DNA of 64,000 nt from an uncultured Spirochaetales bacterium. GTDB taxonomy: Bacteria; Myxococcota_A; UBA9160; SMWR01. Positions 1 to 46,930 of the stretch are shown here, in pieces (the first letter of the stretch is position 1; the number at the start of each line of letters is the position of its first letter). The stretch covers positions 1,053 to 65,052 of the forward strand of contig CAZBSV010000074.1 in NCBI GenBank assembly GCA_964494795.1, read 5' to 3'. The notes under the pieces are model-generated. The model saw only the letters and a list, made by a program, of their open reading frames with translations, was not told the origin of the DNA and searched no databases. The position numbers were made by a program, and so were the translations under genes.

Positions 1-76
1 GGCGGGCGCGCACCCGCTCGACTTCGAGCCACGAGCGCTACTCGCTTTAGCGAGCCCTTTCCCGTACCGGGAGTGG

Positions 77-2419
77 ATGCATGGATGCGTCGCGATCGGT
101 GTGCTGTGGCAACGCACTGCTTCATGCGCGGCGGTTCTGCTGACACTGTTCGCGGCTGCCGCCTCCGCGAACAGCGACTGCAGATGCGTTCCCGAGCTGG
201 TGCTACCCGGAGGCAATCTCGCGAATCTGCGAGATGTGGCGGTTGGAGGAAAGGCTTCGAGGGTCAGCAAATCCGTCACGGTTCGTTTGCGAGCTGTGGA
301 TGTCTCACCCGGCAGCTGTACGGCTGGAGAGAGTTCCGATCCGGTCGCCGTGAGCCTTGCGCTGGAGGACGACGACGGTGATGTGATTCTCGATCGCGCA
401 GCGCCAGGGTTCGTGTGCACATCGGATGAGAAGACCAACGCGAAGTTTGTCGCCATCTTCGAGGGGCCCAAGAACTGCAAGAATTCGGCGGTACCCGATC
501 ACCAATCCAACGGCGCCATCCTGGGTTCCGTATCGACGGACGACGGTGGCGCATTGCTCTTTTCGCGGAAGATCCGCTGTGCCGAAGCCGTGCCCGTCGA
601 ATTCAGCTTCGATCCACCGCCCAATTATCATGTCACACAGGGCGATACGCTGAACTTCTCGGTCACCGCGGGCCGCAGAGACAGACCCGTGAGCGTTTCC
701 GCTTCTGGGCTGCCTGCGTCGGCCAGCTTCGACGGGACGAACGTCTCGTGGGTGGGCGGGTTCGGAGAAAGGGAAGACGGAAACTACGACGTCACATTCG
801 CGGCAGACGGCGAGACAGCGCTGATCAACATCGCAACCACCCAGTACCCGATCTCGAATATGGATCTAACCGATCTGTCTGGTGCAGTGATCCAAAACTC
901 GCTCCCGGTCCCGGTCGGTGGCCAGGCGCGGGTGATTGCCAAGCCGCGTTACGTCAACCCATTGGGGGTGCCGAACATCGGCGGACAGGGTGCGAACGCC
1001 TGGAACGATTTCGTTTGGTCGATCGACGCCAACTACATCGCCGACTTTCGAACCGCGACGAACGTAGCGGTGATCGAAGGGGCTGGCGGCGGAACCACCA
1101 AGATTCGTGCGACTTTCACGGATGCAGCGCTCGGGGTGGTGACCGCGTCCGCGACTTTGGAGTCCCTCGAAGTGATTTCGATCGCGATCAGTCCAGCTGA
1201 CTTTACTCTCCCGGAGGGTTCAACCGAGCCTCTGCGGGCGACGGCCACGCTCATGGGGGGCATTCAGACGGCGAATCTTGCGTTTGGCTGGCTGTCGTCG
1301 AATGAATCGATCGCGGATGTCGTTCCAGGCAGCGTCCTGGGGGTCGCCAACGTGACCGGCCACAGCCTCGGGACAGCGACCATCACTGCGTTCAACACGA
1401 ATGGCCCGGTCGTGCGTGGCACGACCAACGTCACCTCGGTGCCTGCGCGGCGGAGTCAAGATCTGTTCGCCATGGATCGACAACCGGCCGGAAGCCGGAT
1501 CGTCTCGATCGACACGGCGGGGAATACGCAATTTCACGCAGCGATGTCGGCTCCTTACAACGATCAATTCTGTTCGTCGAGTTCCCACACGACGAACGAA
1601 CTGATGGTAGGTGGCTTCGAGGCGAGCACCGGATTTTCCGAGATCCAGCGAATCGACGCACTCGGGAATGTGACGGATGTTTTCACGAGCACCACTGTCA
1701 CTCCGCTGGGTGATACGATCGACCTAGGGGCGGTTCGATATCGGCCCGATGGGGGGGCCTACTTCGCGATGTCCGAGGGGCAACACACGTTGACGTTCGC
1801 CGACGCACTCGGGAGGCTGACTCGCATCGAAGGGCCGAATGGAAACGACGGTTTCGGCCCGATCGCGATCGCGCCGTTCGGCAACGACCGGGTGTACTCG
1901 GGGCCCTGGGGCGTAGAGCTGCTCGGGCAGGGCAACCGGGTCGAGGGCTTCGCAGATCTCGTGGCTCGTTATGATGCTTCGGCACAATCGAACCAGTTTG
2001 TCGCGCGGATGGGGGTCTCGCAGCCGCGTTTGGCAGCGCCGGGTGGTGACCTTTGGATCCTCGACGGAGGCACTGGTCAGCTCTTCCGGTTCGAGGACCT
2101 CAATCGTGACGGGGACTATTACGAAATCAAGACGACGTCCTCAGGGGAGGAGGCTGTCAAGAATGCAGTGGATGATCCGGGCGAGAGAATCCTCGCGGGT
2201 CAGCTGCCGAGCGGTTTCGACGAGCTCCATCTGAACCCCACTACCGGCAACGTGATTGCCGTTCGAATCGTGGGCACCGTTCCGCAGCACATTTCGGTGA
2301 TGATTCTCGAGGACCTGAACGGCGATGGCGACGTGGACGATGCTGGGGAGCAGGCCGTCGTCTTCGATGCAGGTGCACCGCCGGGAACCGACGCCGCCGA
2401 CGTCCTAATGAAGTACTAA
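77..2419 (+). CDS. secreted protein with bacterial Ig-like (Big_2-type) repeat and C-terminal Ca-binding-like DxNxDGD motifs; function unknown
   Basis: 780-aa ORF. Hydrophobic signal-like N-terminus (AAVLLTLFAAAASA). Big_2-like segment (ISPADFTLPEGSTEPLRATATL...NESIADVV...GTATITAFN). Two DLNxDGD motifs near the C-terminus. Confidence 0.6.
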   Translation: MHGCVAIGVLWQRTASCAAVLLTLFAAAASANSDCRCVPELVLPGGNLANLRDVAVGGKASRVSKSVTVRLRAVDVSPGSCTAGESSDPVAVSLALEDDDGDVILDRAAPGFVCTSDEKTNAKFVAIFEGPKNCKNSAVPDHQSNGAILGSVSTDDGGALLFSRKIRCAEAVPVEFSFDPPPNYHVTQGDTLNFSVTAGRRDRPVSVSASGLPASASFDGTNVSWVGGFGEREDGNYDVTFAADGETALINIATTQYPISNMDLTDLSGAVIQNSLPVPVGGQARVIAKPRYVNPLGVPNIGGQGANAWNDFVWSIDANYIADFRTATNVAVIEGAGGGTTKIRATFTDAALGVVTASATLESLEVISIAISPADFTLPEGSTEPLRATATLMGGIQTANLAFGWLSSNESIADVVPGSVLGVANVTGHSLGTATITAFNTNGPVVRGTTNVTSVPARRSQDLFAMDRQPAGSRIVSIDTAGNTQFHAAMSAPYNDQFCSSSSHTTNELMVGGFEASTGFSEIQRIDALGNVTDVFTSTTVTPLGDTIDLGAVRYRPDGGAYFAMSEGQHTLTFADALGRLTRIEGPNGNDGFGPIAIAPFGNDRVYSGPWGVELLGQGNRVEGFADLVARYDASAQSNQFVARMGVSQPRLAAPGGDLWILDGGTGQLFRFEDLNRDGDYYEIKTTSSGEEAVKNAVDDPGERILAGQLPSGFDELHLNPTTGNVIAVRIVGTVPQHISVMILEDLNGDGDVDDAGEQAVVFDAGAPPGTDAADVLMKY

Positions 2420-2472
2420 ACGCGGATTCGCGCAGCCGAATCATTGGACCCGGCCAGCGTGAATTGGTGGTC

Positions 2473-2574
2473 GAGATTTGCGGCAATGTCTTCGCGGCGC
2501 CACAGCGCGGTGATGCTCGGCTCGCCCCGCAGCCCTTCGATCACGATCCGGATCTTCTCTTCAGCGGAAAACCG
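2473..2574 (-). pseudogene. IS3-family transposase OrfA fragment (HTH part only)
   Basis: Inside ORF 2416..2679. The segment RFSAEEKIRIVIEGLRGEPSITALWRREDIAANL matches the conserved IS3/IS911 OrfA N-terminal motif and then diverges. There is no OrfB and no inverted repeats. Confidence 0.5.
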
Positions 2575-2599
2575 CCATCGAATCTTGGCGCTGCTGCTA

Positions 2600-2631
2600 A
2601 CCGGCGCTGGACCGGCGCTGGACCGGCGCTG
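2600..2631. repeat. 11-nt tandem repeat accggcgctgg, about 2.9 copies
   Basis: Read directly: accggcgctgg accggcgctgg accggcgctga. Confidence 0.8.
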
Positions 2632-2680
2632 ACCAGTTGTCTGCCGTTCCGCGAAATGGGCGTAAATACTTGGAATCAAA

Positions 2681-2722
2681 TGGAGCGCGAGGCGGGATTC
2701 GAACCCGCGACCCTCAGCTTGG
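2681..2722 (-). repeat. 42-nt duplicate of the 3' end of tRNA-Gly(CCC); att-like direct repeat
   Basis: tggagcgcgaggcgggattcgaacccgcgaccctcagcttgg matches 5803..5844 of the intact tRNA with 1 mismatch, in the same orientation. It covers CCA, acceptor 3' arm, T-arm and part of the anticodon stem only. Confidence 0.85.
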
Positions 2723-2762
2723 AAAAGCGCAAGAGGCCCAAGAAGTAACGCCTAGTTACACC

Positions 2763-3032
2763 TCCTCCCTTGTCGCTCTTGTGCCCTCGGCTCTGCGTAA
2801 TCCCGGTAACCACGATCTCGTCCACGTGCGGGCTCAGCGTCTCGTATAGCCAGGCACTCTGCAGCCCTTCCTCGAAGACCAGATGCTTGTGTCCGGGAAT
2901 CATCCGCACCGCCTCGACGAGCGCCTGGCCGTTGGTCTCGGCCGGAAAATCCCGAAGCTTCCGGCCCTTCTCGGAAATCACCGCCAGCGTGCAGCTCGCG
3001 GCGTGTACGTCCATCCCGATGTAGCGTTCCAT
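2763..3032 (-). pseudogene. IS110-family transposase, N-terminal fragment only
   Basis: MERYIGMDVHAASCTLAVISEKGRKLRDFPAETNGQALVEAV... is typical of the IS110 DEDD transposase N-terminus, with a GAGGAGG RBS upstream. Homology stops after about 90 aa, where the reading frame runs into the tRNA-derived repeat. Confidence 0.65.
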
Positions 3033-3197
3033 CGGTGCCTCCTCTCGTTGGGTGTTGTTGACTCCGCAACTCGAGGATGCCCGGTGAGGCCGGGAGGCAC
3101 CAACCTTCGTGCTCTCGGGGACTTACGTCACGAACCGCAGGCGCCATACCCATATGATGCTTATGATCATTCTGTCCACGACCAGAGGAGCCCGCGA

Positions 3198-3884
3198 ATG
3201 GCGCTGTTCGAACGAGAAGAAACTGATTTCGGTTCTGATGTCGCCACGCGCGCGCTGTCGGTGACCGCCGTCGAGAACGACTTCGTCGAAGGCGTTTACG
3301 AGAAAATCGCCAGGGTCTACGATTTGACCTTTGGCCCGACGCTGCATCCGGGGCGTCTGGTTGCCCTCGAGCAGATGGGCATCACGCCAGGTGACCGGAT
3401 CCTCGAGGTTGGCATCGGCACCGGCATCAATGTGTCCCTCTACCCGCGCCACTGCCACGTCACGGGGATTGATTTCTCGGCAAAGATGCTCGAGAAGGCG
3501 CGGGAGCGAGTGGCCCGGAAGGGGCTCTCGAACGTCTCGTTGCACGAGATGGATGCCGCGCGCCTCAGCTTTGCGGATGGATCCTTCGACATCGTCTACG
3601 CTCCGTACGTGATCAGCGTGGTCTCCGATCCCGTTCGGGTCGTCCGCGAGATGCGCCGCGTCTGCCGGCCGGGCGGCAAGATCATCGTCTTGAACCATTT
3701 CAGGAGTCTGAACCCGATCCTGTCCAGGATCGAGCGGGCCATCTCGCCCTTCACCGTCCACATTGGCTTCAAGGCGGATCTCGACCTGCCCGGCTTCCTC
3801 GCGCAGGCGGAGTTGCGGCCCATTTCCATCCAAAAGGTGAGCTTTCCGCCGATCTGGTCGCTCATCAGCTGTCTCAAGGACTGA
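3198..3884 (+). CDS. class I SAM-dependent methyltransferase, PmtA-like (phospholipid N-methyltransferase family)
   Basis: ATG at 3198 preceded by GAGGAG. SAM motif ILEVGIGTGIN. The pattern VYDLTFG...GIDFSAKMLEKA...MDAARLSFADGSFDIVYAPYVISVVSDP...RVCRPGGKIIVLNH resembles rhizobial-type PmtA. Confidence 0.75.
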   Translation: MALFEREETDFGSDVATRALSVTAVENDFVEGVYEKIARVYDLTFGPTLHPGRLVALEQMGITPGDRILEVGIGTGINVSLYPRHCHVTGIDFSAKMLEKARERVARKGLSNVSLHEMDAARLSFADGSFDIVYAPYVISVVSDPVRVVREMRRVCRPGGKIIVLNHFRSLNPILSRIERAISPFTVHIGFKADLDLPGFLAQAELRPISIQKVSFPPIWSLISCLKD

Positions 3885-3898
3885 TCACTTCCCGGTAA

Positions 3899-4150
3899 GC
3901 GCTTCGCGAACCCCATGTTTCGGATGACGTAGAACGTCGCATTCTGCTTCCTCGCCTGTCCGCGACAGCGAAATTTTCCACGCTGGCAGTACCGGCCATA
4001 CGGGCCTCGGTGCGGGTCGTTGACCCCGATCAATCGATCGCTGACGTGCGCATGATGGACGAGATGCTCGAGCGATCCGTTGGGCGGCAGCACTTGACCG
4101 CGCTGGAGACCCTCCTGTTTCAGGTCAGCGCCACCGATCCGGCAACGTAC
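3899..4150 (+). pseudogene. possible remnant of an FtsX/MacB-type ABC permease with an internal deletion
   Basis: The frame reads ...AIRASVRVVDPDQSIADVRMMDEMLERSVGRQ directly joined to LLFQVSATDPATY. Both are conserved motifs of ADOP/MacB-like permeases, but the transmembrane helices between them are missing and there is no credible start. Confidence 0.35.
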
Positions 4151-4299
4151 ATCCAATGCGGGGAGTCCTCGGGTTCAAGCAGTCAACGCAACACATTCGC
4201 GCTCGCGCGCCGGCCGTAGCAGAATCGGCTCTTGGAACGGTTACGCTGCCAATGAGCGGCGCCGCTACGCTGTGCCCCGCCTCACCGCAAAGGACCCAC

Positions 4300-5691
4300 A
4301 TGGCCATCGAAGCCACCGCTGCCACGAGCGGCGTCGCCCCCGCCGAGCCGCTCGCGGACCGGAAGACGCTGCGCCGAGTGCTTGTCGCCGCCTCCGTCGG
4401 CACCCTGTTCGAGTGGTACGACTTCTACCTCTACGGCAGCCTCGCGATCTTCTTCGGCGCGTTGTTCTTCCCTTCCGGTAACGAGACGGCACAGTTGCTT
4501 GCGAGCCTCGCGACGTTCGGCGCGGGCTTCGGCGTGCGGCCGCTCGGCGCCATCGTCTTCGGCCACATCGGCGATCTCGTCGGCCGCAAGTACACGTTCC
4601 TCATCACGATGGTGACGATGGGCTTGAGCACGGCGCTCGTCGGCTTCCTGCCGACTTACGCGACCGCCGGGCTCGCCGCGACCGGGTTGCTCGTGCTGCT
4701 GCGCCTGCTGCAAGGCTTGGCGCTCGGCGGCGAGTACGGCGGCGCGGCCACGTACATCGCCGAGCACGTGCCCGATGCGAAACGGGGCTATTACACGAGC
4801 TTCATCCAAACGACGGCCACGCTCGGCTTCTTCTTGAGCATGGGCGTGATCGGCGCGACGCGCATCTGGTTGGGCGAGGAGGCGTTTCGCGAGTACGGCT
4901 GGCGTATCCCGTTCCTGCTGTCGTTCGTGTTGCTCGGCGTGTCACTCTACATCCGGCTCAAGATGAAGGAGTCGCCGCTGTTCACGAAGCTCAAGCAGAG
5001 CGGTGGCACGGCCAAGAATCCGCTCAAGGAGAGCTTCACGAACCCCGTCAATCTCAAGTACGTGCTCCTCGCATTGTTCGGGGCAACGGCGGGCCAGGGC
5101 GTTGTCTGGTACACGGGCCAGTTCTACGCGCTCACGTTCCTGCAGAACGCGCTTGGGCTAGTGTGGAGCGACGCCTACATCATCATGTCGATCGCGCTGC
5201 TGATCACGACGCCGCTCTTCATCGCGTTCGGCGCGTGGTCCGATCGCATCGGCCGCAAGAGGATCATGCTCGGCGGTTGCGCGCTGGGCGCCGTCACCTA
5301 CGTGCCAATCTACATGGCGATGGACTACTTCTCCGATCCGCTCAACTGGCCCGCGATGATCATGCTACTCGCGGTCCAGATGGTGTACGTCTGCATGGTC
5401 TACGGGCCGATCGCGGCATTTCTCGTCGAGCTCTTTCCGACCAAAATCCGCTACACGTCCATGTCGCTGCCGTATCACATAGGGAACGGTTGGTTCGGCG
5501 GCTTTCTGCCGCTGATCGCCACGGCCGTGACGGCGTCGACGTGGGCTCGCGATACGTTCGGCGAGGGTGCGATCTACACGGGGTTGTTGTACCCGATCGG
5601 CGTCTGCATTCTGACGGTGGTGGTGGGATCGCTGTACGTCCGTGAGACGAAGGACCACCGCATCGATGCGGTGGACCCCCGGAAACATTGA
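4300..5691 (+). CDS. MFS transporter, metabolite:H+ symporter (ProP/KgtP-like) family
   Basis: ATG 4300 with AAGGA RBS. Motifs FEWYDFYLYG, GHIGDLVGRKYTF and LQGLALGGEYGGAATYIAEH. About 12 hydrophobic segments. Confidence 0.85.
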   Translation: MAIEATAATSGVAPAEPLADRKTLRRVLVAASVGTLFEWYDFYLYGSLAIFFGALFFPSGNETAQLLASLATFGAGFGVRPLGAIVFGHIGDLVGRKYTFLITMVTMGLSTALVGFLPTYATAGLAATGLLVLLRLLQGLALGGEYGGAATYIAEHVPDAKRGYYTSFIQTTATLGFFLSMGVIGATRIWLGEEAFREYGWRIPFLLSFVLLGVSLYIRLKMKESPLFTKLKQSGGTAKNPLKESFTNPVNLKYVLLALFGATAGQGVVWYTGQFYALTFLQNALGLVWSDAYIIMSIALLITTPLFIAFGAWSDRIGRKRIMLGGCALGAVTYVPIYMAMDYFSDPLNWPAMIMLLAVQMVYVCMVYGPIAAFLVELFPTKIRYTSMSLPYHIGNGWFGGFLPLIATAVTASTWARDTFGEGAIYTGLLYPIGVCILTVVVGSLYVRETKDHRIDAVDPRKH

Positions 5692-5802
5692 AGAACGTAC
5701 GCGGCTGCGCCTAAGCGTCGAACGGAGAGGCGGCGCCGGTGAGGTCGAGTGCCACAAACAACAACGCCCCCGGCACAAGTCAGCGAGGGCGAACAGGTTT
5801 AT

Positions 5803-5878
5803 TGGAGCGCGAGACGGGATTCGAACCCGCGACCCTCAGCTTGGGAAGCTGATGCTCTACCAACTGAGCTACTCGCGC
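5803..5878 (-). tRNA. tRNA-Gly (anticodon CCC)
   Basis: The minus strand reads GCGCGAGTAGCTCAGTTGGTAGAGCATCAGCTTCCCAAGCTGAGGGTCGCGGGTTCGAATCCCGTCTCGCGCTCCA. It folds as a cloverleaf with anticodon loop TTCCCAA and an encoded CCA. Confidence 0.95.
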
Positions 5879-5935
5879 CCGCCCCCGAAGACTGGCACGG
5901 CGCTGCCAGCAAGGCAACCGCTGAAGCGCGCCCGT

Positions 5936-6226
5936 TCAGCCCTCTCGGTAGGTGGTGTGCGTGGGGCGGGCGGTCAGGATGTTCTGCTTGCCCCAGTCGG
6001 TGACCTTCTTGAAGGCCTCGGAGCGGATGAAGCCCCCGAAGGCCTCGTCACTCTCCCAGCGAGACACGATCAGGTAGACGGGCGCACCCTGGTCGACCCG
6101 TCGATAGACATGGGATTCCGCGTGGCCGTCGATGCTCTGCATCAGATCGATGACCTTCGCGCAAGCGGCCTCGAAGATCGCGCCCTTGCCTTCGTGGACG
6201 AAATAATTCATTCCGATGGTAACCAC
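5936..6226 (-). CDS. antibiotic biosynthesis monooxygenase (ABM) domain protein
   Basis: 96 aa. The pattern GMNYFVHEGKGAIFEAA...YLIVSRWESDEAFGGFIRSEAF is typical of ABM/Dabb-fold proteins. Confidence 0.7.
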   Translation of the reverse strand: MVTIGMNYFVHEGKGAIFEAACAKVIDLMQSIDGHAESHVYRRVDQGAPVYLIVSRWESDEAFGGFIRSEAFKKVTDWGKQNILTARPTHTTYREG

Positions 6227-6313
6227 CGACCCGCCCTCCGCTGAACTCGAGTGCGGGCAGGATAGCCACGCCGCGCTGCGGCGGGCAATCGGCGAACGCC
6301 GTGCGGCGAGCGA

Positions 6314-7375
6314 TCAGTCGTCGAGCAGCTCGACCAGCAGATCTTCCGGCTCGTCGTCGTCGAACTTCGGCGGCCCCGCGCTGGCGCTCGCCGGGGAGCT
6401 GCTGAATCTTGGGATCGGCGCGCTACCGGCCAGTCGAGCGGACTTGACCATCGACGCCAACTCGGGATCCAGTTCGCTCAGGGTCTGTTGCAGTTCGGGG
6501 TCGGCCGCCTCGATCGGCGATCCCGCCCGGCTCGACGCGCCCGCGCCCGCGCCCGAAACCACCGCCGCCCAGCCGAGGTCTCGGTGTGCGCGCTCGACGT
6601 CGATGCGAGTCATCCGATTGCGGCCGCACAGGAAGGCCTCGAAGAGCGCATTGTCGGCCAGCGTGTTGATCAAGCCCGGGTATCCGCGCCCGAATTCGTG
6701 AAGCGCGATTACGGCTGCCCGATCGAGGATGTCCGGATCGCCGCCCGCCTGGCGGACGCGATGCGCGAGATAGCCGGAAGCGGCATCGAGATCGAGCGCA
6801 CCGAGTGCCGCGCGGACATCGATTCGGTGGGCGAGCGAAGGGTCCGCGCTCAGCGATCGATCGAGAATCTCCTGGCCAGCCAGCACGAGCGACAGCAAGC
6901 GCCGATCCTCGTACTCGAGCCTGAGCAGGCTGCAGACTTCTGCCAGCGCCCCGCGCTTGGCGAGTGCATGCGCGTCATCGATGATCAGCACTGGCTGTCG
7001 ACCTTCTTCACGAACGATGGCGAGCTGGTCGTAGATCTGCGCAATCATGCTCTCGCGCTCCGGCGCGGGGTCTTCGACGCCCAGCTGCCGGGCAAAACGC
7101 TTGAGCATCCAATTAGCGTCGGCCGCAGCGTCGAGCACCACCATCATGCTCGCTTCGAAAACCTCTTCTTCGAGACATTCGAGCAGCCGGCGCACCAGCA
7201 TCGTTTTGCCGCTGCCGGTCTCTCCCGTGAGCACGCAGAGGCCCTTGCCCTGGCGAACGCCCCGCTCCAGGCGTCGCAGTGCGCCTTCGTGCGGGTCGCT
7301 CGCGAAATACGCTTTCAGCTGCGGCTCGTTGCGAAAGGGATCTCCGCTGAGTCGGAAATGATGAAGATGATCCAC
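6314..7375 (-). CDS. ExeA/GspA/MshM-like AAA ATPase
   Basis: N-terminal FRLSGDPF motif. Walker A GETGSGKT, Walker B VLIIDDAH. RLLSLVLAGQ...L pattern as in ExeA-family secretion/pilus ATPases. Confidence 0.75.
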   Translation of the reverse strand: MDHLHHFRLSGDPFRNEPQLKAYFASDPHEGALRRLERGVRQGKGLCVLTGETGSGKTMLVRRLLECLEEEVFEASMMVVLDAAADANWMLKRFARQLGVEDPAPERESMIAQIYDQLAIVREEGRQPVLIIDDAHALAKRGALAEVCSLLRLEYEDRRLLSLVLAGQEILDRSLSADPSLAHRIDVRAALGALDLDAASGYLAHRVRQAGGDPDILDRAAVIALHEFGRGYPGLINTLADNALFEAFLCGRNRMTRIDVERAHRDLGWAAVVSGAGAGASSRAGSPIEAADPELQQTLSELDPELASMVKSARLAGSAPIPRFSSSPASASAGPPKFDDDEPEDLLVELLDD

Positions 7376-7386
7376 GTGCAGCTACC

Positions 7387-10300
7387 TCAGACGAAAGAAA
7401 TCTTCTTCTTGCGCCGCTTGGGGGTTTTCTCAGCCGATTCGTCGGCTTCGACGAGATCGCCAGCGTCCTCTTCGCCAACGGGCCCGGAAGAAGCGCCTTT
7501 CTCTGCCGCCCCGGATCTCGACTCCGCGCTGTCTGCAGCCTCGACCTCCGCGACGACATCGTCGAAGCTCTCCCAAATCGGAGGCGCCTCGGTGGCAGCG
7601 CCGGCTTGCGTCGCGGCCTTGGACTCGATCGCCGCGAGCTGGGTCTCGATCGGCGCGGACTGGGTCGCGATCGGCGCGGAATCGTCGAGATCCCCGAGGA
7701 ACTCGTCGAACGATTCGTATTCGTCGGTGTCAACGCTCGCGCCTTCGCGCGGATCGGATTCCTCGGACTTCTGGAGCTCTGCGAGCCGCGACGCAACGTC
7801 CGCGAAATTCGGATCCAATGCTTGAACTTCTTCATACGCCATGCGTGCCGACGCGATATCCCCGGTCGCTTCGTACGACTTTCCGAGATCCAACTTGAGC
7901 GCAAAAATCATCTCGTTGGAAAGCCCACTCGATGCGAGCGCTTCCTTGAGATGGCCAATCGCTTGCTCCGGCTCACCCGTGTCTTGCGCGCACATTCCCA
8001 GCAGATGGAGACAGCCGATGCGGCGCTCCGGGTCGCCCATCGCGAGCCGAAATTCTCCAATCGCATCGCTGAACAGACCCATCTCCCGATACGCGATTCC
8101 GAGATCGTAGTGGGCTTGATAATCTCCCTCAGACAGCGCCGCACTGACTCCCTTCTTGAACTCGGCAAAGACCGAAGCGAAGCCATCTTCCGAAGTGTTC
8201 CCGCGGCCCGCGGCTCGATCGATTCTCGACGAAGAAGCGCCCGCATCCCGATCGAGCGACTGGCTCAGTTCAGCGGCCAGATCGAACCCGAACGGGTCGC
8301 CGTCCGGTTCGGGTGCGTGGCCCTGTACGGGTGCGTGGCCCTGTTCGGGTGCGTGGTCGTGTTCGGCTGCGTGGTCGTCGGAAGCCTCGGCGAGAGCCGC
8401 AACGGAATCCGCGCGCCCTGCATCCGCTACCGACTCGCCCGGGGTCTCCGACACTTTGGGAACACTCGCGAGCGAACCCGTCTCATCCTGTTCGTCCGAC
8501 TGGGATTGGTCTTCCGCTGCATCGTCGCCGAGATTCGAGTCGAGATCGAGTTCGCCGGAATCCTCGAATCCGAGATCGGCCGCAAAATCTTTTGCGGCTT
8601 CGTCGCGCGCTCCCGCTGCAACGCTTTCTGCTTTCGCATCTCCGGCTTCAACGGCCTCGGCGCCTTTCAGCAGCGCGGTCTCGCGGGCGATCGCAGCGGT
8701 GGCGCCCAGATTGCCCTGCCAGTTCGCGAGATCCTCGCCGATATCCGATCCCGCCAACGCCGCCGATTCGCCATTCTCGGGCTCGGAATTTGCTGCCGTC
8801 GTCGCCGGAGCGCCGACCCCCGGTCCAGCATGATGCCCGCGCTGGGCGGAAATTTCCCCGAGCCGGACCATCGCGTGCGGGTGATTCGGCAGCAGCGCGA
8901 CGATCCGCGAATAGACGGCCTCAGCTTCATCGAGCAGACCCTGCTCCAGGTAGAAGTCCGCTTCTTCGAGATCCTCCGCGACCTTCTCCGGGCTTGCATT
9001 GCTTTCGCTCGGGCCGGAAAACGTCATCGCGTCGCTGTCGACTTCGGCGTCGTCGACGGCGTCCTCGTCGCCTGCAGCGCCGTGGCGGACCGAAATGTCG
9101 GTGATACTGATCTCGTCCAGCTCGGCGTCGCCGGCCGAACCCAGGCCGCCCGCTGCCGCGGCGAGACTCGATTGGCCTGTCGACGCGTCGCTTGCGGAGG
9201 GCTGCGCGAAGCTCGCGTCGTCGATGTCGATCTCGATGTCGATTCCGTGGACCGAAATCTCCGCGAGATCGAGTTCGGGTAGTTCCGAATCATCGAATCG
9301 TGCGGTTTCCGGATCCAGCGTCACACCGGCCGGATCATCGGGTATGGACAATTCATCCGAGGATTCCCCGCTGAGATCGTCTGCGATCCCCTGCCTACCG
9401 GGAGCCGATCCGGTCGCGCGGGGAGTCGGTCCGGCCGCGCGTGGAGCCGATTCGGTCGCGCGGGGAGTCGATCCGGCCACGCGGGGAGCCGATCCGGTCG
9501 CGCGGGGAGCCGGTCCGGCCGCGCGGGGAGTCGGTCCGGCCACGCGGGGAGCCGATCCGGCCGCGCGCGCAACCGACAGCTCGAGTTTCCCGGCGGCCGT
9601 CGGATCGAGCGCCGCGACTCGGCTGCGGAGCAACTCTGCCGAACCGACCTCTCCCGATTCGGCAGCCAATCTCGCCGCTCGAGACCACATCTCGACGGCC
9701 TTCGCGACGTCATCTCCCTCCGCGTAGGCCTCGCCGAGTTTTTCCAATGCCAGGCGGTGATCGAGATCGCGCGCGAGAATGCTCTCGAGGTTCGCGATGG
9801 CCTGATTGCGCTTCCCGTAGCGAAGATAGACGCTCGCTTCGGCCAGCAGCTGACCGACATCGATCTCGTCATCCCGTGGTCCTGAATCGCCCGCGGGCTT
9901 CTTAGCCAGCGAACCATTGGGCGAGAGGCGCGTCATTTCATTCGAGTCGGAGATCGGACTCAACGGACCCGAGCGAATATCGTCCAGATCTCCGTCGCGG
10001 CTCAGAATGCCGAACCCAGAATCGTCATCCGAAACCAGCAGGGTCGTATCGGACAGCAGGTCTCCATCGAGAAGCGTCGTCTCATCGCCAATCAACAGAT
10101 CGTCCAGCAGCTCATCGTCGCCGAGTTTTTCGTCGTCACTGATGTAACCGTTGGGTGTATCCTTCGAGCCGATCTCGTCGAGAGGCACGTAGCGCTGCAA
10201 GATCTCGCGAGTGCGTTCTTCATCGCCACGTTCGCGATAGAGCTCCGCCAACTCGCGATACAGAGCCACGAGATCCTCGTCGCGCTTCTCGAGCCGGTAG

Positions 10301-11028
10301 ACGTCGGCCAACAGCTCGAAGTGTTCAGGCGATCTGTCTTGTCCGAGCGCGCGCTTCGCGAGCGCCTCGGCGCGCTCGGTGGCACCTTGCTCGATCAGAT
10401 TCCGCGCATACCGGGCAATCGTCTCGACGCGACCGGGTTCGACCTCCAGAATCCGCTCGAACACCTTCCCCGCAGCTTCCGAGTCGCCCTGAAGCTCGAG
10501 CTCGCTGATGACGGCGTCGTATTCAGAGACGGCCTGTTCCTTCAGACCTTCCTGATGGAGCAGGTCGGCGACCTTGATTCGACTGGTTGTATTCGATGGA
10601 TCGATGGCGGCCATCTTCCGAAGCAGGCCGAGCGCTTCCTGCTTCTGGCCCGCCTTCCGATAGCCTTCCGCTGCTGCTTCGAGACAGCCGATCGCCTCGG
10701 CGGTCAGGCCCATGCGCTGATAGAGTTCCGCGAGCGGCTCGTAGGATGTGAATGTATCGGGTTGCAGATTTTGAATCTGCTTGAAGACCGCGACAGCACG
10801 AGCATCGAAGCCCTCGTGCATGAACTGATCGGCTACGACCGAATACGCACCGATCGCTTCACCGATCTGCCCCCAACGCCGGTAGGTGTCACCGAGCTCC
10901 AGACGCAACTTGGAGTCGCGCGGATCAAGCTTGAGCAGCTTGCCGAATTCATTGAGCGCCTTGTCCTTGGCGCCCTTTTGGGCGTGCTTGCGCGCCGCCT
11001 CCAGAATTTTTCGCTTGTCCGCCGCCAA
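7387..11028 (-). CDS. large multi-block TPR protein with acidic low-complexity linkers; SgmX-like by architecture and position
   Basis: 1213 aa. There are TPR blocks at the N-terminus, the middle and the C-terminus, separated by D/E-rich disordered regions. It sits downstream of pilQ on the same strand. The SgmX comparison is an inference from recalled Myxococcus xanthus locus organisation. Confidence 0.7.
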   Translation of the reverse strand: MAADKRKILEAARKHAQKGAKDKALNEFGKLLKLDPRDSKLRLELGDTYRRWGQIGEAIGAYSVVADQFMHEGFDARAVAVFKQIQNLQPDTFTSYEPLAELYQRMGLTAEAIGCLEAAAEGYRKAGQKQEALGLLRKMAAIDPSNTTSRIKVADLLHQEGLKEQAVSEYDAVISELELQGDSEAAGKVFERILEVEPGRVETIARYARNLIEQGATERAEALAKRALGQDRSPEHFELLADVYRLEKRDEDLVALYRELAELYRERGDEERTREILQRYVPLDEIGSKDTPNGYISDDEKLGDDELLDDLLIGDETTLLDGDLLSDTTLLVSDDDSGFGILSRDGDLDDIRSGPLSPISDSNEMTRLSPNGSLAKKPAGDSGPRDDEIDVGQLLAEASVYLRYGKRNQAIANLESILARDLDHRLALEKLGEAYAEGDDVAKAVEMWSRAARLAAESGEVGSAELLRSRVAALDPTAAGKLELSVARAAGSAPRVAGPTPRAAGPAPRATGSAPRVAGSTPRATESAPRAAGPTPRATGSAPGRQGIADDLSGESSDELSIPDDPAGVTLDPETARFDDSELPELDLAEISVHGIDIEIDIDDASFAQPSASDASTGQSSLAAAAGGLGSAGDAELDEISITDISVRHGAAGDEDAVDDAEVDSDAMTFSGPSESNASPEKVAEDLEEADFYLEQGLLDEAEAVYSRIVALLPNHPHAMVRLGEISAQRGHHAGPGVGAPATTAANSEPENGESAALAGSDIGEDLANWQGNLGATAAIARETALLKGAEAVEAGDAKAESVAAGARDEAAKDFAADLGFEDSGELDLDSNLGDDAAEDQSQSDEQDETGSLASVPKVSETPGESVADAGRADSVAALAEASDDHAAEHDHAPEQGHAPVQGHAPEPDGDPFGFDLAAELSQSLDRDAGASSSRIDRAAGRGNTSEDGFASVFAEFKKGVSAALSEGDYQAHYDLGIAYREMGLFSDAIGEFRLAMGDPERRIGCLHLLGMCAQDTGEPEQAIGHLKEALASSGLSNEMIFALKLDLGKSYEATGDIASARMAYEEVQALDPNFADVASRLAELQKSEESDPREGASVDTDEYESFDEFLGDLDDSAPIATQSAPIETQLAAIESKAATQAGAATEAPPIWESFDDVVAEVEAADSAESRSGAAEKGASSGPVGEEDAGDLVEADESAEKTPKRRKKKISFV
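9410..9570 (-). repeat. 21-nt tandem repeat, about 8 copies, in-frame in the TPR gene (heptapeptide PRxxGxx)
   Basis: Units ccggtcgcgcggggagtcggt / ccggccgcgcgtggagccgat ... encode PRVAGPT PRAAGPA PRATGSA PRVAGST PRATESA PRAAGPT PRATGSA. Confidence 0.9.
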
Positions 11029-41737: not shown

Positions 41738-43179
41738 TCGCGATCCGACGCGGCGGGAATCTCGCCCTGCGCCAGTTCCGCGGCAAACCGGTCCACGGCA
41801 GCCATCGCCGCTTCGTCGCTGCCGGAAAATCCGTTCACGAGAATCGAGAATACGAGCGGCTCGCCGCTGGCTGACAGCGCGTAACCCGAAAGCGCCGTCA
41901 CGCGCGTGAGAAGGCCGGTCTTCGCGCGCACCCGGTTGGCAGCTTCACCGCTGCGCTTCTCCAACGTGCCGTCCGACGCCGCGATCGGCAACGCCGCGAC
42001 GAACTCCGGCCCGAAGCGAAACGAGTCCCTCGCGATCCGCAGCGCCGACACCAGCGTGCGCGGCGTCACGCGGTTGTCATAGGACAGTCCCGAACCGTCT
42101 ACGCTCGACATCCCCGCCAGATCGACACCGAGCTGTTCGAGTTGCGCGCGCACGGCCGAAATGCCGGCCGGCCAACTTCCCACACCCGCGTCGCGCGCAC
42201 CAAGTGCCTTGACGAGCATCTCAGCCATCGTGTTGTTGCTGTACTTGAGAAACAGCTGCACGAGATCCGCCAAGCTCTTGCCTTCGAATGCGAGCACGGG
42301 AAGCATCGACTCGGGCACGACGCCGAGGCGATCCTCTGCTTCGACGCCTTCCACGCGGATCCCGTTGGACTCGAGTTGCGCGCGCAGCACCGAGCCCGCG
42401 TAGCGGACGGGATCGAGCACGCTTCGGGGGTAGGTCTTCGATTCGCTCGCCGCGCGCACGACGCCCGAGACGCTGACTTCCTCGGCGCCGCCCAGCCGGC
42501 TTCGATCGACGGCGAGACTCGTTTTGGCTTTTCGCTCGCCGGTTGCCGCGAGGTTCTTGAGCCGCAGATAGGAAACCGGAGGATCCAGCCGCACGCGAAC
42601 GGGATCGCCCGCTTTGCGCCCCGCTTCGACCGTGGCCGAGAAAGCGCTGTAGTTCGCGGTCAGCGCGGCGACCGGTCCGTGGTAGGCGCGAGCCGAAGTC
42701 TCGCCCCAGTTCGGATGCCAGAATTCGGCGTCGAATGCGCTGGCATCGAGCAGCAGCCCTTTGCGGACGCTGCGGATTCCGCGCAGCCGCAAATCGGCGG
42801 CGAGGCGCCAGTATTCCTCCGAAGTGAGTCCCGGATCTCCGCCTCCGCGAACCCCGAGCCAATCGACGCCACCGTCGGCGTCCGGCCGCGCATCCGCGAA
42901 GATCTGGGTGGTGAATCGGTGCGCGGGCCCCCAGGCGGCGAGCAGCGCAATCGCAGTCAAGACCTTCTGGTTCGAAGCGGGAATCAGTGCGTGGTCCGGC
43001 GCGCGCTCGTAGAGCACCCTGCCGTCCTGTTGCGCGACCACCAACACACCGATGCGCGCGTCCTTCAGCGCCGGAGCGCGCAGCGCGGCGTCGAGGCGAC
43101 CCGCAAACTCCGCCGCCGCGGCCGATCCGGCCAGCGACACAGCGAGCGTTGCCGCGGTGACACTCCAGACGCGACGCAT
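41722..43179 (-). CDS. dacB: D-alanyl-D-alanine carboxypeptidase/endopeptidase (PBP4, S13 family)
   Basis: ATG 43179 with GGAGGAGAGG RBS. Signal peptide, SxxK motif PASNQKVLT, DGSGLS, KTGLLTRV (KTG). 16-nt convergent overlap with the SLT gene. Confidence 0.8.
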   Translation of the reverse strand: MRRVWSVTAATLAVSLAGSAAAAEFAGRLDAALRAPALKDARIGVLVVAQQDGRVLYERAPDHALIPASNQKVLTAIALLAAWGPAHRFTTQIFADARPDADGGVDWLGVRGGGDPGLTSEEYWRLAADLRLRGIRSVRKGLLLDASAFDAEFWHPNWGETSARAYHGPVAALTANYSAFSATVEAGRKAGDPVRVRLDPPVSYLRLKNLAATGERKAKTSLAVDRSRLGGAEEVSVSGVVRAASESKTYPRSVLDPVRYAGSVLRAQLESNGIRVEGVEAEDRLGVVPESMLPVLAFEGKSLADLVQLFLKYSNNTMAEMLVKALGARDAGVGSWPAGISAVRAQLEQLGVDLAGMSSVDGSGLSYDNRVTPRTLVSALRIARDSFRFGPEFVAALPIAASDGTLEKRSGEAANRVRAKTGLLTRVTALSGYALSASGEPLVFSILVNGFSGSDEAAMAAVDRFAAELAQGEIPAASDRDQCDR

Positions 43180-43423
43180 CGATCCTCTCCTCCGGTGCTG
43201 CCTGCCGGCTCTACGGCGCAACTTCGGTTCTTGTGGATTCTTTTCCTGCGCCCAATCCTGCGTTCGAGCGCTCGAGCGACTCCGCTGGAGCAAGGGCTCA
43301 GCGCTGAGGTCACTTGCGCCGAGAAGCTGGGGGAGCTTCTGGGATGTTCGCTTGACGCGAGTCAGCTTATCCGGGAGGCTGCGACGCGGCAATCGAGTTC
43401 GGCTCGACGCGTCTGGGGGGATC

Positions 43424-44725
43424 GTGCTCAACGCGATATTCATCGCGCTGCTCGTAGTTGCGGTCGTGACCGCGGCCGGCAACGGCAGGATGCCGGCCGT
43501 CAACCAGGCGCTGTTCGACTCCGCGCGCGACGCCGTCAACATCGCGCTCGGGCTGATCGGAACGATGGCGCTGTGGCTCGGATTCATGCGCGTGCTGCGC
43601 GACGCGGGCGTGATGGCGAACATCGCGCGCGCGCTCGCTCCCGTGATGCGCTGGCTATTCCCCGCGATTCCGCCTGATCACCCCGCGATCAGCGCGATGA
43701 TCCTGAACATGTCCGCGAACGTGCTCGGACTCGGCAACGCCGCAACCCCGTTCGGCCTCAAGGCGATGCGCGAGCTGCAGAAATTGAACACCAACAAGGC
43801 CGTCGCGACGGATTCGATGGCGCTGTTCCTCGCGATCAACACGTCGGGGCTCGCGGTCATCCCGACTGGCGTGATGGCGGTCCGCGCGAGCCTCGGCTCG
43901 GCGAACCCGGGCGGGATCTTCCTGCCCTCGATTCTCGCGACCCTGTGCTCGACGATCACCGCGATCGTCTTCGCCAAATTTCTCGCGCGCCGCAAGATAT
44001 TCTCACTCGACCGCTACGCGTCGATCTACCCCACGGATGCGAGCGAACCCGAACCGGACGTTGACGACATCGAGCTGCCGCAGGCTCCCGAGAGCCGGTC
44101 GTTCTCGCGCTGGGGCGTTGCGCTGATGCTGGCCGTCGCCGCCTGGGTGGTCGCGATGATCGTCCGCGACCTCGCGGTCGCCGAGGGCAACACGCGGGAA
44201 GCGATGCTCGCGATCTTCAACAGCTGGCTGATGCCGCTGCTCGCGGTCGGGATCGCCCTCTACGCGCTGGGCGCGCGGGTCAAGGTCTACGAATCGCTGG
44301 TCGAGGGCGCGCGCGAGGGTTTCCAGATCGTGATCATGATCATTCCCTTCCTGGTCGCGATCCTCGTCGCGATCGGCGTGTTTCGCGCTTCGGGAGCGCT
44401 CGATGCGGTGCTCGCGGCCGTTTCGCCCGTGACATCCCTGATCGGATTTCCCGCGGAAGCGCTCCCAATGGCGATCATCCGCCCGCTTTCCGCCCAGGGA
44501 GCGCTCGGCGTCATGACGGAAACGATGAAGATCTACGGTCCGGATTCCTTCATCGGCTACCTGGTTTGCGTGATTTCCGGCAGCACCGAGACCACCTTCT
44601 ACGTGCTCGCGCTCTACTGCGGGAGCATTCGGCTCCGCGCTACCCGACACACGGTGTTTGCGTGCGTCGCCGCGGATATCGGCGGCGCGCTCGCCTCGCT
44701 GTTCTGGTGCCGGGTATTCTTCTGA
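43424..44725 (+). CDS. nucleoside-recognition-domain membrane protein (fused SpmA/SpmB-like)
   Basis: GTG 43424. Multi-TM protein with the motif NMSANVLGLGNAATPFGLKAM and a second Gate-like half. Confidence 0.7.
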   Translation: MLNAIFIALLVVAVVTAAGNGRMPAVNQALFDSARDAVNIALGLIGTMALWLGFMRVLRDAGVMANIARALAPVMRWLFPAIPPDHPAISAMILNMSANVLGLGNAATPFGLKAMRELQKLNTNKAVATDSMALFLAINTSGLAVIPTGVMAVRASLGSANPGGIFLPSILATLCSTITAIVFAKFLARRKIFSLDRYASIYPTDASEPEPDVDDIELPQAPESRSFSRWGVALMLAVAAWVVAMIVRDLAVAEGNTREAMLAIFNSWLMPLLAVGIALYALGARVKVYESLVEGAREGFQIVIMIIPFLVAILVAIGVFRASGALDAVLAAVSPVTSLIGFPAEALPMAIIRPLSAQGALGVMTETMKIYGPDSFIGYLVCVISGSTETTFYVLALYCGSIRLRATRHTVFACVAADIGGALASLFWCRVFF

Positions 44726-44780
44726 TCCGCGGCGCGGGGTCGGTGACGCCCCCAACACCCGCGCAAGCCAGGAAGCCCGC

Positions 44781-45866
44781 GTGAACCAGAATCGATCCAG
44801 ACAGCAGAGCGAGGCCCTCGTCGCAGAAGTCGTCCGCGCGCAGCTCGGGGCCGCGGTCAGCCGATTCAGCTGGTTGCGCGGCGCACTCGGCTTTCGAAGT
44901 TTCTCGAGGATCTGGCTCGAAGCATCTGAAACAACAAGACAATCTCTCCCTGAAACGCTGATCGCGCGGATCGAGGCCGCGGACGATCCGAGCCGCAGGC
45001 CCGCGGGCGTTCTCGCCGAGCCCGCCCTCGAGCCGATCCGCGCACTGCTCGAATCCGAGGGCCTTCCGGTGCCGCGGCGCTTCGGCGCGGATCCCGCGCG
45101 CGGCATCGAACTGCTCGAGGACCTAGGCGAGCGCTCGCTCGCGGATTTTGCGCGCAGCGCGGATGCGCGAGAACTCGACAGCCTCTACCGCGAAGCCTGC
45201 GAACTCCCGCCGCGGCTCCAGCGGATCGAAGCGCGCCCGGGCGTCGCAAACTTCGCGCGCCAGCTCGACGACGCCCACTTGCGCTACAAGGCCGAGCGCT
45301 TCGCGCGCTGGAGTCTCCACCGCGATCGCGCGGCGAGCCCCGAGGAGGCCACGGTCGTGCGCGAAGCTTTCGAGCGGATCGCGCGAGAGATCCGCAGCGC
45401 GCCGCGGCGGCTCGCGCATCGGGACCTGCAAAGCGCGAATCTCCAACTCGTCGAAACGCCTCGAGGTTCAGCTGCCAAGATGCCGTTTCGACTCGTGATG
45501 ATCGATCTCCAAGGTGCGTTCATGGCACCGCCCGAATACGATCTGGTCTGCCTGCTGCGGGATTCCTACGTCGAGCTCACTGAAGCCGCAGTGGCCGCGC
45601 ATCTCGCGCGCGTGCGATCCGCGCTGCCGGACTGCCCGGACGCGGAGATCTTTCAGCTGCGCTTCGACCTTCTCACCCTCAGCCGCAAGGCGAAGGACCA
45701 CGCGCTGTTTCGCGCGGTCGCGCGCGAGCGCGGGGACGAGCGCTATCTCCAGTACCTGCCAGCGACGCGCCGCTATCTCCAGACAGCGGCCGCGCGCGTT
45801 GCATCAAAATACCCAGAATACGCTGACTTGAATCATCTGATTCAAGCGATTCCGGAGCTTCCATGA
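44781..45866 (+). CDS. amgK: aminoglycoside-phosphotransferase-fold kinase, AmgK-like (anomeric MurNAc/GlcNAc kinase)
   Basis: GTG 44781 with AGGAAG RBS. APH catalytic region LAHRDLQSANL...MIDLQGAFMAPPEYDLVCLLRDSY. It is 4-nt-overlapped with a MurU-like gene. The symbol is tentative. Confidence 0.6.
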   Translation: MNQNRSRQQSEALVAEVVRAQLGAAVSRFSWLRGALGFRSFSRIWLEASETTRQSLPETLIARIEAADDPSRRPAGVLAEPALEPIRALLESEGLPVPRRFGADPARGIELLEDLGERSLADFARSADARELDSLYREACELPPRLQRIEARPGVANFARQLDDAHLRYKAERFARWSLHRDRAASPEEATVVREAFERIAREIRSAPRRLAHRDLQSANLQLVETPRGSAAKMPFRLVMIDLQGAFMAPPEYDLVCLLRDSYVELTEAAVAAHLARVRSALPDCPDAEIFQLRFDLLTLSRKAKDHALFRAVARERGDERYLQYLPATRRYLQTAAARVASKYPEYADLNHLIQAIPELP

Positions 45867-46783: not shown

Positions 46784-46796
46784 ACGCCTCTGCGAA

Positions 46797-46930
46797 GGTT
46801 GGTTGCACGGCTTCGCTGACGGAAGTTGGTTGAACGGGTTCGCTGACGGAAGTTGGTTGAACGGGTTCGCTGACGGAAGTTGGTTGAACGGGTTCGCTGA
46901 CGGAGGTTGGTTGCTTGGGTTCGCTGACGG
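46797..46930. repeat. 27-nt intergenic tandem repeat, 5 copies
   Basis: GCTGACGG recurs at 46815, 46842, 46869, 46896 and 46923. The unit is gttggttgaacgggttcgctgacggaa. It starts 14 nt after the murU-like stop. Confidence 0.9.

Follow-up and report, generated by a model that had tools for sequence, protein, structure and literature searches.

A probable integrase-less island remnant at a tRNA-Gly(CCC) gene of an uncultured bacterium of the Myxococcota lineage

The closest described counterparts of the locus analyzed here are genomic islands, decayed mobile elements and phages that use transfer RNA (tRNA) genes. The Islander signature of a genomic island consists of a tRNA gene (tDNA) together with a displaced fragment of it, at the 'A' subsite, and the integrases of Mx8 and SSV extend across the attachment site attP (PMC4383910). 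In Mx8, attP is located within the int gene, and integration makes a new 3' end of int (PMC6070905). Cis-mobilizable elements (CIMEs), which have been defined in Firmicutes and originate from conjugative or mobilizable elements, are decayed integrative and conjugative elements or integrative and mobilizable elements that keep the attachment sites attL and attR and have lost the recombination genes (PMC5704250). In the 64-kb stretch of DNA analyzed here (hereafter the window; contig CAZBSV010000074.1, positions 1,053 to 65,052), from an uncultured bacterium of the Myxococcota_A lineage, an intact tRNA-Gly(CCC) gene is accompanied by a displaced copy of its 3' end. We interpret the interval 2681-5847 as the remnant of an element that integrated into tRNA-Gly(CCC) by tyrosine-integrase site-specific recombination (probability about 0.85), and the evidence supports a CIME-like decayed, integrase-less island at an integration hotspot. 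This interpretation builds on the repeat and its geometry, the relations of the flanks, the homology of a short sequence to an integrase tail, and the elements, with or without an integrase, that occupy this tRNA gene in relatives. For the comparison, related loci of uncultured Myxococcota (80 from genomes and 80 from metagenomes) were gathered with the ATPase gene near the tRNA as the anchor; the loci carry labels such as L017.

The only tRNA gene called by ARAGORN in the window is tRNA-Gly(CCC) (5803-5878, minus strand), and Rfam, in which this gene scores 74.4 bits, yields no second tRNA-like match in positions 1-9000 at E<=1. A repeat finder detects a direct repeat between 5803-5847, the 3' part of the gene, and 2681-2725, with 43 of 45 positions identical and a single mismatch within the first 42 nucleotides (nt). 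The copy keeps the orientation of the tRNA, lies downstream of its 3' end, at 3,122 nt core to core, and is not called as a tRNA by either ARAGORN or Rfam; its homology to the tRNA ends within the anticodon loop. With up to three mismatches allowed, the 42-nt pattern occurs at two sites in the window, the tRNA and the copy, and at no others, and it has no match in any of 100 dinucleotide-preserving shuffles. At position 65 in the T stem, the displaced copy carries a C instead of the U shared by all intact tRNAs of the clade, and this single substitution fits drift in an unselected fragment. The G49·U65 wobble in the T stem of tRNA-Gly(CCC) (window 5814 / 2692) is itself conserved throughout the clade; C65, which is found only in the displaced copy of the window, would give a Watson-Crick pair with G49.

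The DNA immediately downstream of the intact tRNA resembles the end of an integrase gene. In a tblastn search, residues 157-191 of the L017 integrase match the window at 5745-5849 (69% identity over 35 amino acids (aa), E = 2e-8); 16 of the matched residues are encoded by the tRNA, and the frame of the integrase tail runs on for 16 codons into the tRNA complement, where it terminates at a TGA stop. The 58 nt after the tRNA (5745-5802) also hold a terminator-like hairpin (site called at 5776-5764, minus strand) and a T-rich tract, which are now located 3' of the tRNA. This type of flank (hereafter type B) lies inside the intact integrase open reading frame (ORF) in L017 and L087, is carried by attL of the islands in L009 and L012, and directly follows the tRNA in L002, the closest short-contig relative. 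Overlap with the terminator-like hairpin, now 3' of the tRNA, probably accounts for the persistence of the integrase stub. Pfam and tblastn searches of the interval revealed neither an integrase nor an excisionase gene, and tblastn detected no integrase of the L017-type family elsewhere in the window.

The opposite end of the interval shows the complementary arrangement. The outer flank of the displaced copy (flank D; specifically, 2655-2680 and the hairpin region) directly follows the intact tRNA-Gly(CCC) in the syntenic loci L030, L086 and L093, an arrangement equivalent to an empty site. The hairpin region of flank D is GCGCCGG-rich and includes an 11-nt tandem repeat of 2.9 copies (2600-2631, detected by TRF), and the hairpin arms display compensatory differences between L030 and L086. 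Similarly, the flank outside the duplicate in L010 and L012 is of the type that follows the intact tRNAs of other relatives. A derivation of flank D from a decayed integrase 3' end was considered and is unsupported: the 38% tblastn match in L030 consists mostly of the 16 tRNA-encoded residues.

Immediately inside the displaced core, a 46-nt arm (2726-2771, denoted X) aligns with the attR arm of L015. The attR arms of the window, L012 and L010 have a common architecture, with hairpin stem sequences that differ yet stay paired. In the arms of these three loci and L015, the hairpin is followed by ACTTC…GGGC…GCGC, and in three of these four CCC-type arms a stop codon in the integrase frame is located within the 5' arm of the hairpin. 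The arms of the window, L015 and L012 would add basic tails to the integrase C-terminus (KRKRPKK, RRKGRKQ and KRRKPLK, respectively, each followed by a stop); a conserved basic tail is not general, given that the tails in L082 and L176 are acidic or neutral, L010 has no stop, and the tail in L171 is in another frame.

The tRNA-Gly(CCC) gene is occupied by integrase genes in many relatives. A tyrosine integrase of ~425 aa abuts it in L008, L017, L018, L087, L116, L125, L128 and L130, the latter being the closest relative of the window (82% ATPase identity), and in L029 the 3' end of the integrase gene is present at the tRNA, cut by the contig end; in these nine loci the ORF terminates within the 3' half of the tRNA. 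Among the 56 loci with an intact tRNA-Gly(CCC), tblastn detects an integrase gene in 8, a short tail only in 18 and nothing in 30; the L128 integrase, missed by the filter, is additional to these 8. The Phage_integrase ORFs of L008 and L017 are located on the strand opposite to the tRNA, with the stop codon within the tRNA 3' half. The contigs of L008, L017, L018, L029, L116 and L130 end inside the integrase gene, and that of L128, which encodes an HTH_17 protein and a 938-aa DUF3631 protein in addition to the integrase, is cut after 7.2 kb. The ending of contigs within the integrase gene, together with the many integrase homologs on contigs of 1.3-2.7 kb, suggests that these elements are multi-copy or polymorphic in the respective populations.

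Protein searches with the integrase retrieve 498 homologs, which are about 425 aa long at full length and contain SAM-like and central domains. Integrases of this family with ~70% identity are found at tRNA-Gly(GCC) genes (L081-L085, L177), with the overlap with the tRNA kept. For both GCC and CCC targets, the last ~16-22 int codons are the reverse complement of the 3' half of the target tRNA, so that retargeting to another tRNA-Gly alters the integrase C-terminus (…ERETGxEPATLSLGS-stop at tRNA-Gly(GCC) vs …EHETGLEPATPTLATWRSTS-stop at tRNA-Gly(CCC) in L008, L128 and L130). A complete 11.2-kb element is present at tRNA-Gly(GCC) in L082, where it encodes Prim-Pol, D5_N/DUF5906, HTH_17, RHH and the integrase; its ends are marked by a 47-nt direct repeat that starts at the tRNA 3' end and reaches into the anticodon loop, and the int ORF crosses the core, the same geometry as in the window. 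A core without an attached tRNA 5' half is found in L176; the integrase ORF there continues across it and terminates in an X-type arm, as expected for the attP or array form. Altogether, an integrase ORF crosses the att core in L008, L017, L081-L085, L128, L130 and L176, and the window retains a remnant of the tail with the frame kept. A tblastn comparison of the L128 integrase with 50,697 phage records shows at best 27-31% identity (Thermus, Streptococcus-satellite and Bacillus phages), and myxophages are absent from the top 15 of the 772 matching records.

Displaced tRNA-Gly 3' fragments downstream of the intact gene are also found in four relatives, namely L009 (+2.7 kb from the tRNA 3' end), L010 (+5.3 kb), L012 (+0.8 kb) and L015 (+2.2 kb and +4.1 kb). 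The intervals bounded by these fragments encode a small secreted protein, a beta-propeller-like protein or PMT-like membrane glycosyltransferases, and no integrase was found in them. Remnants of Prim-Pol, D5 helicase, HTH_17 and RHH were found neither in the window nor in these integrase-less intervals of relatives. The relatives lack the 3.1-kb interval: the MFS and methyltransferase genes of the window were found near the tRNA in none of the 160 related loci.

Several of these loci are tandem arrays at tRNA-Gly(CCC) (L015 6195-10263, L010 12545-17819, L012 13926-14993). L015 contains three cores, the third of which is just 26 nt long, the L010 island encodes three paralogous membrane proteins of ~570 aa, and L012 has an older integrase remnant beyond its displaced fragment. 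Matches to PMT/PMT_2 (glycosyltransferase family 39) were obtained for three of the 45 proteins screened, among them the 533-aa protein of L015.

These comparisons bear out the original prediction, which was made from the sequence alone, in most respects that concern the attachment sites. The predicted pairing of the tRNA gene with a 42-nt copy carrying one mismatch is reproduced by ARAGORN, Rfam, the repeat finder and the shuffles. The proposal of a degraded integrative element gains from the integrase tail, the attR arm and flank D, all with counterparts in relatives, and that of a repeatedly used hotspot from integrases at the tRNA in nine loci, displaced fragments in four, and the three copies in L015. 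For the empty site that it suggested looking for, the equivalent is seen in the three loci with flank D directly after the intact tRNA. The claim that the interval lacks an integrase and an excisionase holds for the genes as such, but not for the ~19-codon tail that survives at 5745-5802.

A plausible course of events can be outlined as follows. The attP site of the element would have borne a duplicate of the 3' part of the tRNA (anticodon loop through CCA) at the very 3' end of the int gene, on the opposite strand, and would have recombined with the chromosomal tRNA gene at the anticodon-centred 'A' subsite. A working tRNA gene would have been rebuilt from the host 5' half, the element-borne 3' half and the hairpin (attL, 5745-5878), and the original 3' half of the host with its native flank would have moved to the far end (attR core 2681-2725, flank 2590-2680), with the distal arm of the element left just inside attR (2726-2771). 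The order tRNA 5' half - core - element … arm - core - original flank is the one predicted by site-specific integration. The integrase gene would have been deleted later, with the exception of the last ~19 codons that overlap the tRNA-terminating hairpin; excisionase or replication genes, if there were any, would have been lost too, and the interior would have become a mosaic of the MFS gene, the methyltransferase gene, the ADOP pseudogene fragment and a truncated copy of IS110. We infer this order, including the deletion of the integrase in the lineage of the window; the cargo might have come with the element or later.

With the Islander islands (PMC4383910), the window shares an intact tRNA and a downstream same-orientation 3' fragment as the ends, an identity block that extends from the anticodon loop to the 3' end (the 'A' subsite), and tandem arrays, seen in relatives. 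The fragment is cognate to the tRNA, and the distance of 3,122 nt falls within the 2-200 kb range of Islander; at 3.1 kb, the island comes close to the minimum, and inside it is a mosaic of pieces unrelated to one another. Similarly to CIMEs, the window keeps both att sites and has lost the integration genes (homologs of int, HTH_17, RHH, Prim-Pol and D5 helicase were not found in the interval), at a site that is used by integrase-bearing relatives, and accretion-type tandem structures are present in L015, L012, L010 and L176. Unlike the sources of CIMEs, the intact relatives L082 and L128 look like small int-Xis-primase/helicase elements in which conjugation genes were not seen. The likeness to the Mx8 module includes the host phylum, the integrase ORF that crosses the attachment core, so that integration alters the int 3' end, and the 3' region of a tRNA gene as the target, which is likewise used by the family of the window. 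The target of Mx8 is tRNA-Asp, and its integration replaces a much larger C-terminal segment of int than here (the last ~16-25 codons). Mx8 is also a phage of ~50 kb, in contrast to islands of ~11 kb, and the integrase family is not close to the phage integrases searched. Finally, the gene set and the tRNA target of L082 and L128 are those of P4-like or satellite elements, which combine int with an AlpA/HTH_17 excisionase and a primase-helicase; the window itself keeps none of these genes, and by analogy with its relatives the ancestral element may have been of this type.

Several observations weigh against integration by a tyrosine integrase followed by decay. Beyond the tRNA-encoded residues, the homology to the integrase tail is short (~19 codons), and the terminator-like hairpin could be native DNA downstream of the tRNA that integrase ORFs merely read through. 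Flank D recurs in two unrelated contigs, L171 and L172, where it follows a tRNA-Gly-like 3' half, and could be the end of an older mobile element, not strictly native DNA. The interval does not stand out in composition (its tetranucleotide distance ranks at the 85th percentile, and its GC content is 0.627 vs 0.635 for the window). The nearest relative found is ~82% identical (ATPase), and the comparison includes no within-species presence/absence polymorphism. By its integrase filter, Islander would not call this island, given that the integrase is reduced to the ~19-codon stub. A complete integrase-bearing tRNA-Gly(CCC) element with attR was not recovered among the relatives, and the link between the X arm and integrase-bearing elements is indirect.

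The same att sites could be read differently, if the island is a cis- or trans-mobilizable cassette for which attL and attR are still substrates of a related integrase that another part of the genome or an incoming element would encode; the integrase-less att-flanked intervals of the window, L009, L010, L012 and L015 would then form a circulating pool of cargo cassettes. We consider this unlikely. The five loci with att-flanked cargo and no integrase, the compensatory variation of the hairpin stem in the attR arm, the nearly intact cores (43/45 in the window) and the abundance of family integrases, which also use tRNA-Gly(GCC), are compatible with such a pool, and mobilization of CIMEs by accretion has been documented in other bacteria (PMC5704250). 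However, the interior of the island is decayed (the IS110 truncation fused to the arm, the ADOP fragment, the integrase stub), no integrase of the family was found in the 64-kb window, and the conservation of the arm may just reflect recent common ancestry of the elements. Should the island nevertheless be mobilizable, the locus would be a cassette array at a tRNA gene, and the hairpin-bearing attR arm a recognition or termination module. It is also quite improbable that the type-B hairpin is the native flank, with the distal block (arm, tRNA fragment and flank D) imported from the tRNA-Gly locus of another genome, e.g., via imprecise excision or recombination. Import would account for the type-B flank directly after the tRNA in L002, for flank D next to a different tRNA-Gly-like half in L171 and L172, and for the difference at T-stem position 65 between the duplicate and every intact tRNA of the clade. 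Nevertheless, the type-B flank lies inside the integrase ORF in L017 and L087 and at attL of the L009 and L012 islands, each of which has its own displaced fragment; three syntenic relatives have flank D right behind the intact tRNA; and the geometry is exactly that of in-situ integration, with one substitution to be expected in an unselected copy.

The remaining two explanations concern the repeat itself. An origin in which the RNA-guided recombinase of the IS110 family of insertion sequences (IS), instead of a tyrosine integrase, made or targeted the tRNA-derived repeat is suggested by the ORF of the IS110 fragment, which runs straight into the arm and the repeat, and by L171 and L172, where an IS110 fragment is again located upstream of a tRNA-Gly-like half and flank D. 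We reject this highly improbable origin given the position of the IS, its truncation and the lack of IS110 in other islands: the left end at 3164 is 440 nt from the repeat, the truncation at codon 87 makes the arm junction a deletion endpoint, no right end was found close to the repeat, either in the window or in L171, the copies in L167 and L169 have no tRNA nearby, and IS110 is absent from the att-flanked islands of L009, L010, L012 and L015. IS110 insertion is not known to generate 42-nt duplications. There appears to be almost no chance that the 42-nt match is instead what is left, at the 3' side, of another tRNA gene that has decayed, such as tRNA-Gly(UCC). With TTTTCCAAG in place of the CTTCCCAAG of the tRNA, the copy would have a UCC anticodon if it were a gene, but neither ARAGORN nor Rfam (E<=1) calls one, and the D-arm and the acceptor 5' strand are absent upstream, where the 46 nt instead match the attR arms of L015, L012 and L010. 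The homology ends in the anticodon loop, as it does in the cores of L009, L010, L012, L015 and L082, and a second tRNA gene at this position was found in none of the relatives. The missing ARAGORN and Rfam calls and the upstream attR arm lead us to exclude this candidate, and thus the reservation of the original prediction, that the match might turn out to be a decayed tRNA, is not borne out. Integration of an element by its tyrosine integrase, with subsequent loss of that gene, is the explanation that we retain.

The interior of the island contains genes and fragments of diverse origins (Table 1). Homologs of the major facilitator superfamily (MFS) transporter with ~90% aa identity are encoded in a conserved Lactamase_B - sulfatase - MFS - GGDEF/EAL neighbourhood, and neither a tRNA nor an integrase gene was called less than about 8 kb from them in those loci. 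The similarity of these loci to the window at the DNA level is confined to 4289-5689 (84% nt identity), and thus the MFS gene is a single-gene transplant, one piece of the mosaic. The GC content at third codon positions (GC3) of this gene is 0.875, i.e., 2.7 standard deviations above the window mean; that of the methyltransferase gene is typical for the window. A near-perfect 26-nt palindrome (…CCACCGCATCGATGCGGTGG…) is located at 5652-5677, within the 3'-terminal part of the MFS coding sequence. For the methyltransferase, the best NCBIfam model is PmtA (E = 5e-44), with a score of 150 bits, far under the 390-bit cutoff. The ADOP fragment yields a weak but specific match to TIGR03434 (E = 3.2e-5, profile positions 639-688 of 803) and no Pfam match.

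The IS110 fragment matches positions 1-74 of the NCBIfam IS110 profile NF033542 (E = 6.5e-4), and a protein search retrieves 351 homologs with 75-97% identity from many metagenomes, a large share of them with PF01548. Homology to other IS110 copies at the DNA level spans 3164 to about 2769-2772 (codon 87), and the left-end boundary 'ATAAGCATCA' is found with three unrelated flanks. The N-terminal DEDD (RuvC-like) domain is present, and the full length of ~340 aa and both ends are not; no right end or C-terminal part was found in the window. The frame of the fragment runs into the arm and the tRNA-derived repeat. With the IS110 copy cut at codon 87 and fused to the attR arm, a deletion must have taken its 3' part and anything that lay between. 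A PDB sequence search with the fragment found nothing. All 120 inspected homologs are truncated, frameshifted or internally deleted at scattered positions (residues 65-141), with none at full length, which is likely to reflect assembly bias, whereby only degenerate unique copies are assembled through. A copy on long-read contigs (L167/L168) is genuinely truncated and adjoins a 272-aa Phage_integrase ORF. In L171 (143-1070) and L172 (1-810), in an unrelated context with Rieske and PhyH genes, an IS110 5' fragment is followed, after ~470 nt, by an arm-like CCTTGCG with a tRNA-Gly-like 3' half, which ARAGORN does not call as a tRNA, and then by flank D (TGATTCC…ACTTACGC).

Outside the island, next to attR, a fragment of an IS3-family OrfA with a helix-turn-helix (HTH) domain matches 213 plasmid records at 55-68% identity in tblastn searches, one of them annotated as an IS3 family transposase. 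This is an HTH fragment of ~50 aa, and OrfB was not found in the window; the upper third of its ORF (2590-2679) is the tRNA-downstream flank, not IS sequence. A 128-aa HTH_Tnp_1 gene of the IS3 OrfA type is located directly upstream of the family integrase at tRNA-Gly(GCC) in L177 (366-2267), an arrangement that recalls the OrfA fragment beside attR of the window.

As for the gene content, the original prediction is upheld for the IS110 5' fragment with a frame running into the repeat, for the FtsX-permease remnant (the ADOP fragment), for the MFS transporter, which is recognized by both Pfam and NCBIfam, and for the 11-nt tandem repeat just outside. It holds in part for the PmtA-like methyltransferase, given the best model and the score far below its cutoff, and for the IS3 OrfA fragment, which the plasmid matches support, but not over its entire ORF. 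The suggested check of composition does not set the interval apart, with the exception of the GC3 of the MFS gene, and full-length copies of IS110 or IS3, which were to be looked for elsewhere in the genome, were not found in the 64-kb window. By tetranucleotides, the most atypical stretch of the window is about 42750-48350 (distance 0.030 vs a mean of 0.017, GC content 0.67-0.68), which is far more atypical in composition than the tRNA-Gly island.

Table 1. Features of the tRNA-Gly(CCC) island and its surroundings (window coordinates)
Feature	Coordinates	Strand	Basis or detail
Big_2 protein, 780 aa	77-2419	+	Pfam/NCBIfam scans
IS3-family OrfA (HTH) fragment, outside the island	2440-2592	-	plasmid tblastn; weak NCBIfam match to HTH-type TnpA
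Outer flank (flank D)	2590-2680		tRNA-downstream-type spacer (TTTGATTCC…TTTACGC), then degenerate hairpin region
Displaced tRNA-Gly 3' end, anticodon loop to CCA (attR core)	2681-2725	-	43/45 identity to 5803-5847
Element-side arm of attR (X)	2726-2771		hairpin GTAAC-N5-GTTAC; short tail in the integrase frame with stop (…LEKRKRPKK-stop)
IS110-family remnant	2772-3164	-	left end 3033-3164; first 87 DEDD transposase codons 2772-3032
Class I S-adenosylmethionine-dependent methyltransferase (UbiE/PmtA-like), apparently intact cargo	3198-3884	+	Pfam Methyltransf_11, E = 7.9e-26
ADOP-family (FtsX/MacB-type) permease fragment, pseudogene remnant	3983-4132	+	NCBIfam TIGR03434
MFS metabolite/H+ symporter gene (cargo)	4300-5691	+	Pfam Sugar_tr, MFS_1; TIGR00883, E = 3.6e-104
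Tyrosine integrase gene 3'-tail remnant, ~19 codons	5745-5802	+	tblastn with the L017 integrase; frame comparison NAPGTSQRGRTGLL / ERETGFEPATLSLGS-stop
Intact tRNA-Gly(CCC)	5803-5878	-	3' 45 nt (5803-5847) are the attL core; ARAGORN; Rfam RF00005, 74.4 bits; ATPase neighbour in 56 related loci
ABM monooxygenase	5936-6226	-	Pfam/NCBIfam scans
PEP-CTERM-type AAA ATPase	6314-7375	-	Pfam/NCBIfam scans
Long TPR protein	7387-11028	-	Pfam/NCBIfam scans

Upstream of the tRNA, the gene order TPR-ATPase-(ABM)-tRNA-Gly(CCC) is conserved among the relatives. On the other side, in L003 (9549-11689; a ~67% relative), the tRNA is followed by an outer membrane protein (OMP) beta-barrel gene and then by a gene in the same orientation as the Big_2 gene of the window, with the C-terminal part of its product 37.5% identical to residues 33-168 of the Big_2 protein. 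This arrangement could preserve a vestige of the ancestral, island-free neighbourhood.

The island explains the clustering of a tRNA fragment, two IS stubs and a permease pseudogene in the annotation of this region, and its MFS and methyltransferase genes are to be treated as island-borne accessory genes rather than core ones, at least the MFS gene being a transplant. The tendency of contigs to end inside the integrase gene likewise explains why related assemblies break just after the tRNA. For island-finding software, such cases are relevant because filters that require an integrase would miss them. The feature is of an ordinary, well-understood kind, found in a poorly studied lineage, and the biology is not new; of mild interest is that the attachment core lies within the 3' end of the integrase gene, for which Mx8 is the best-known example, and that integrases with this arrangement serve two tRNA-Gly isoacceptor genes. 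The locus documents a family of tyrosine integrases of uncultured Myxococcota whose gene ends in its own tRNA-derived core and which leaves behind integrase-less, att-flanked islets.

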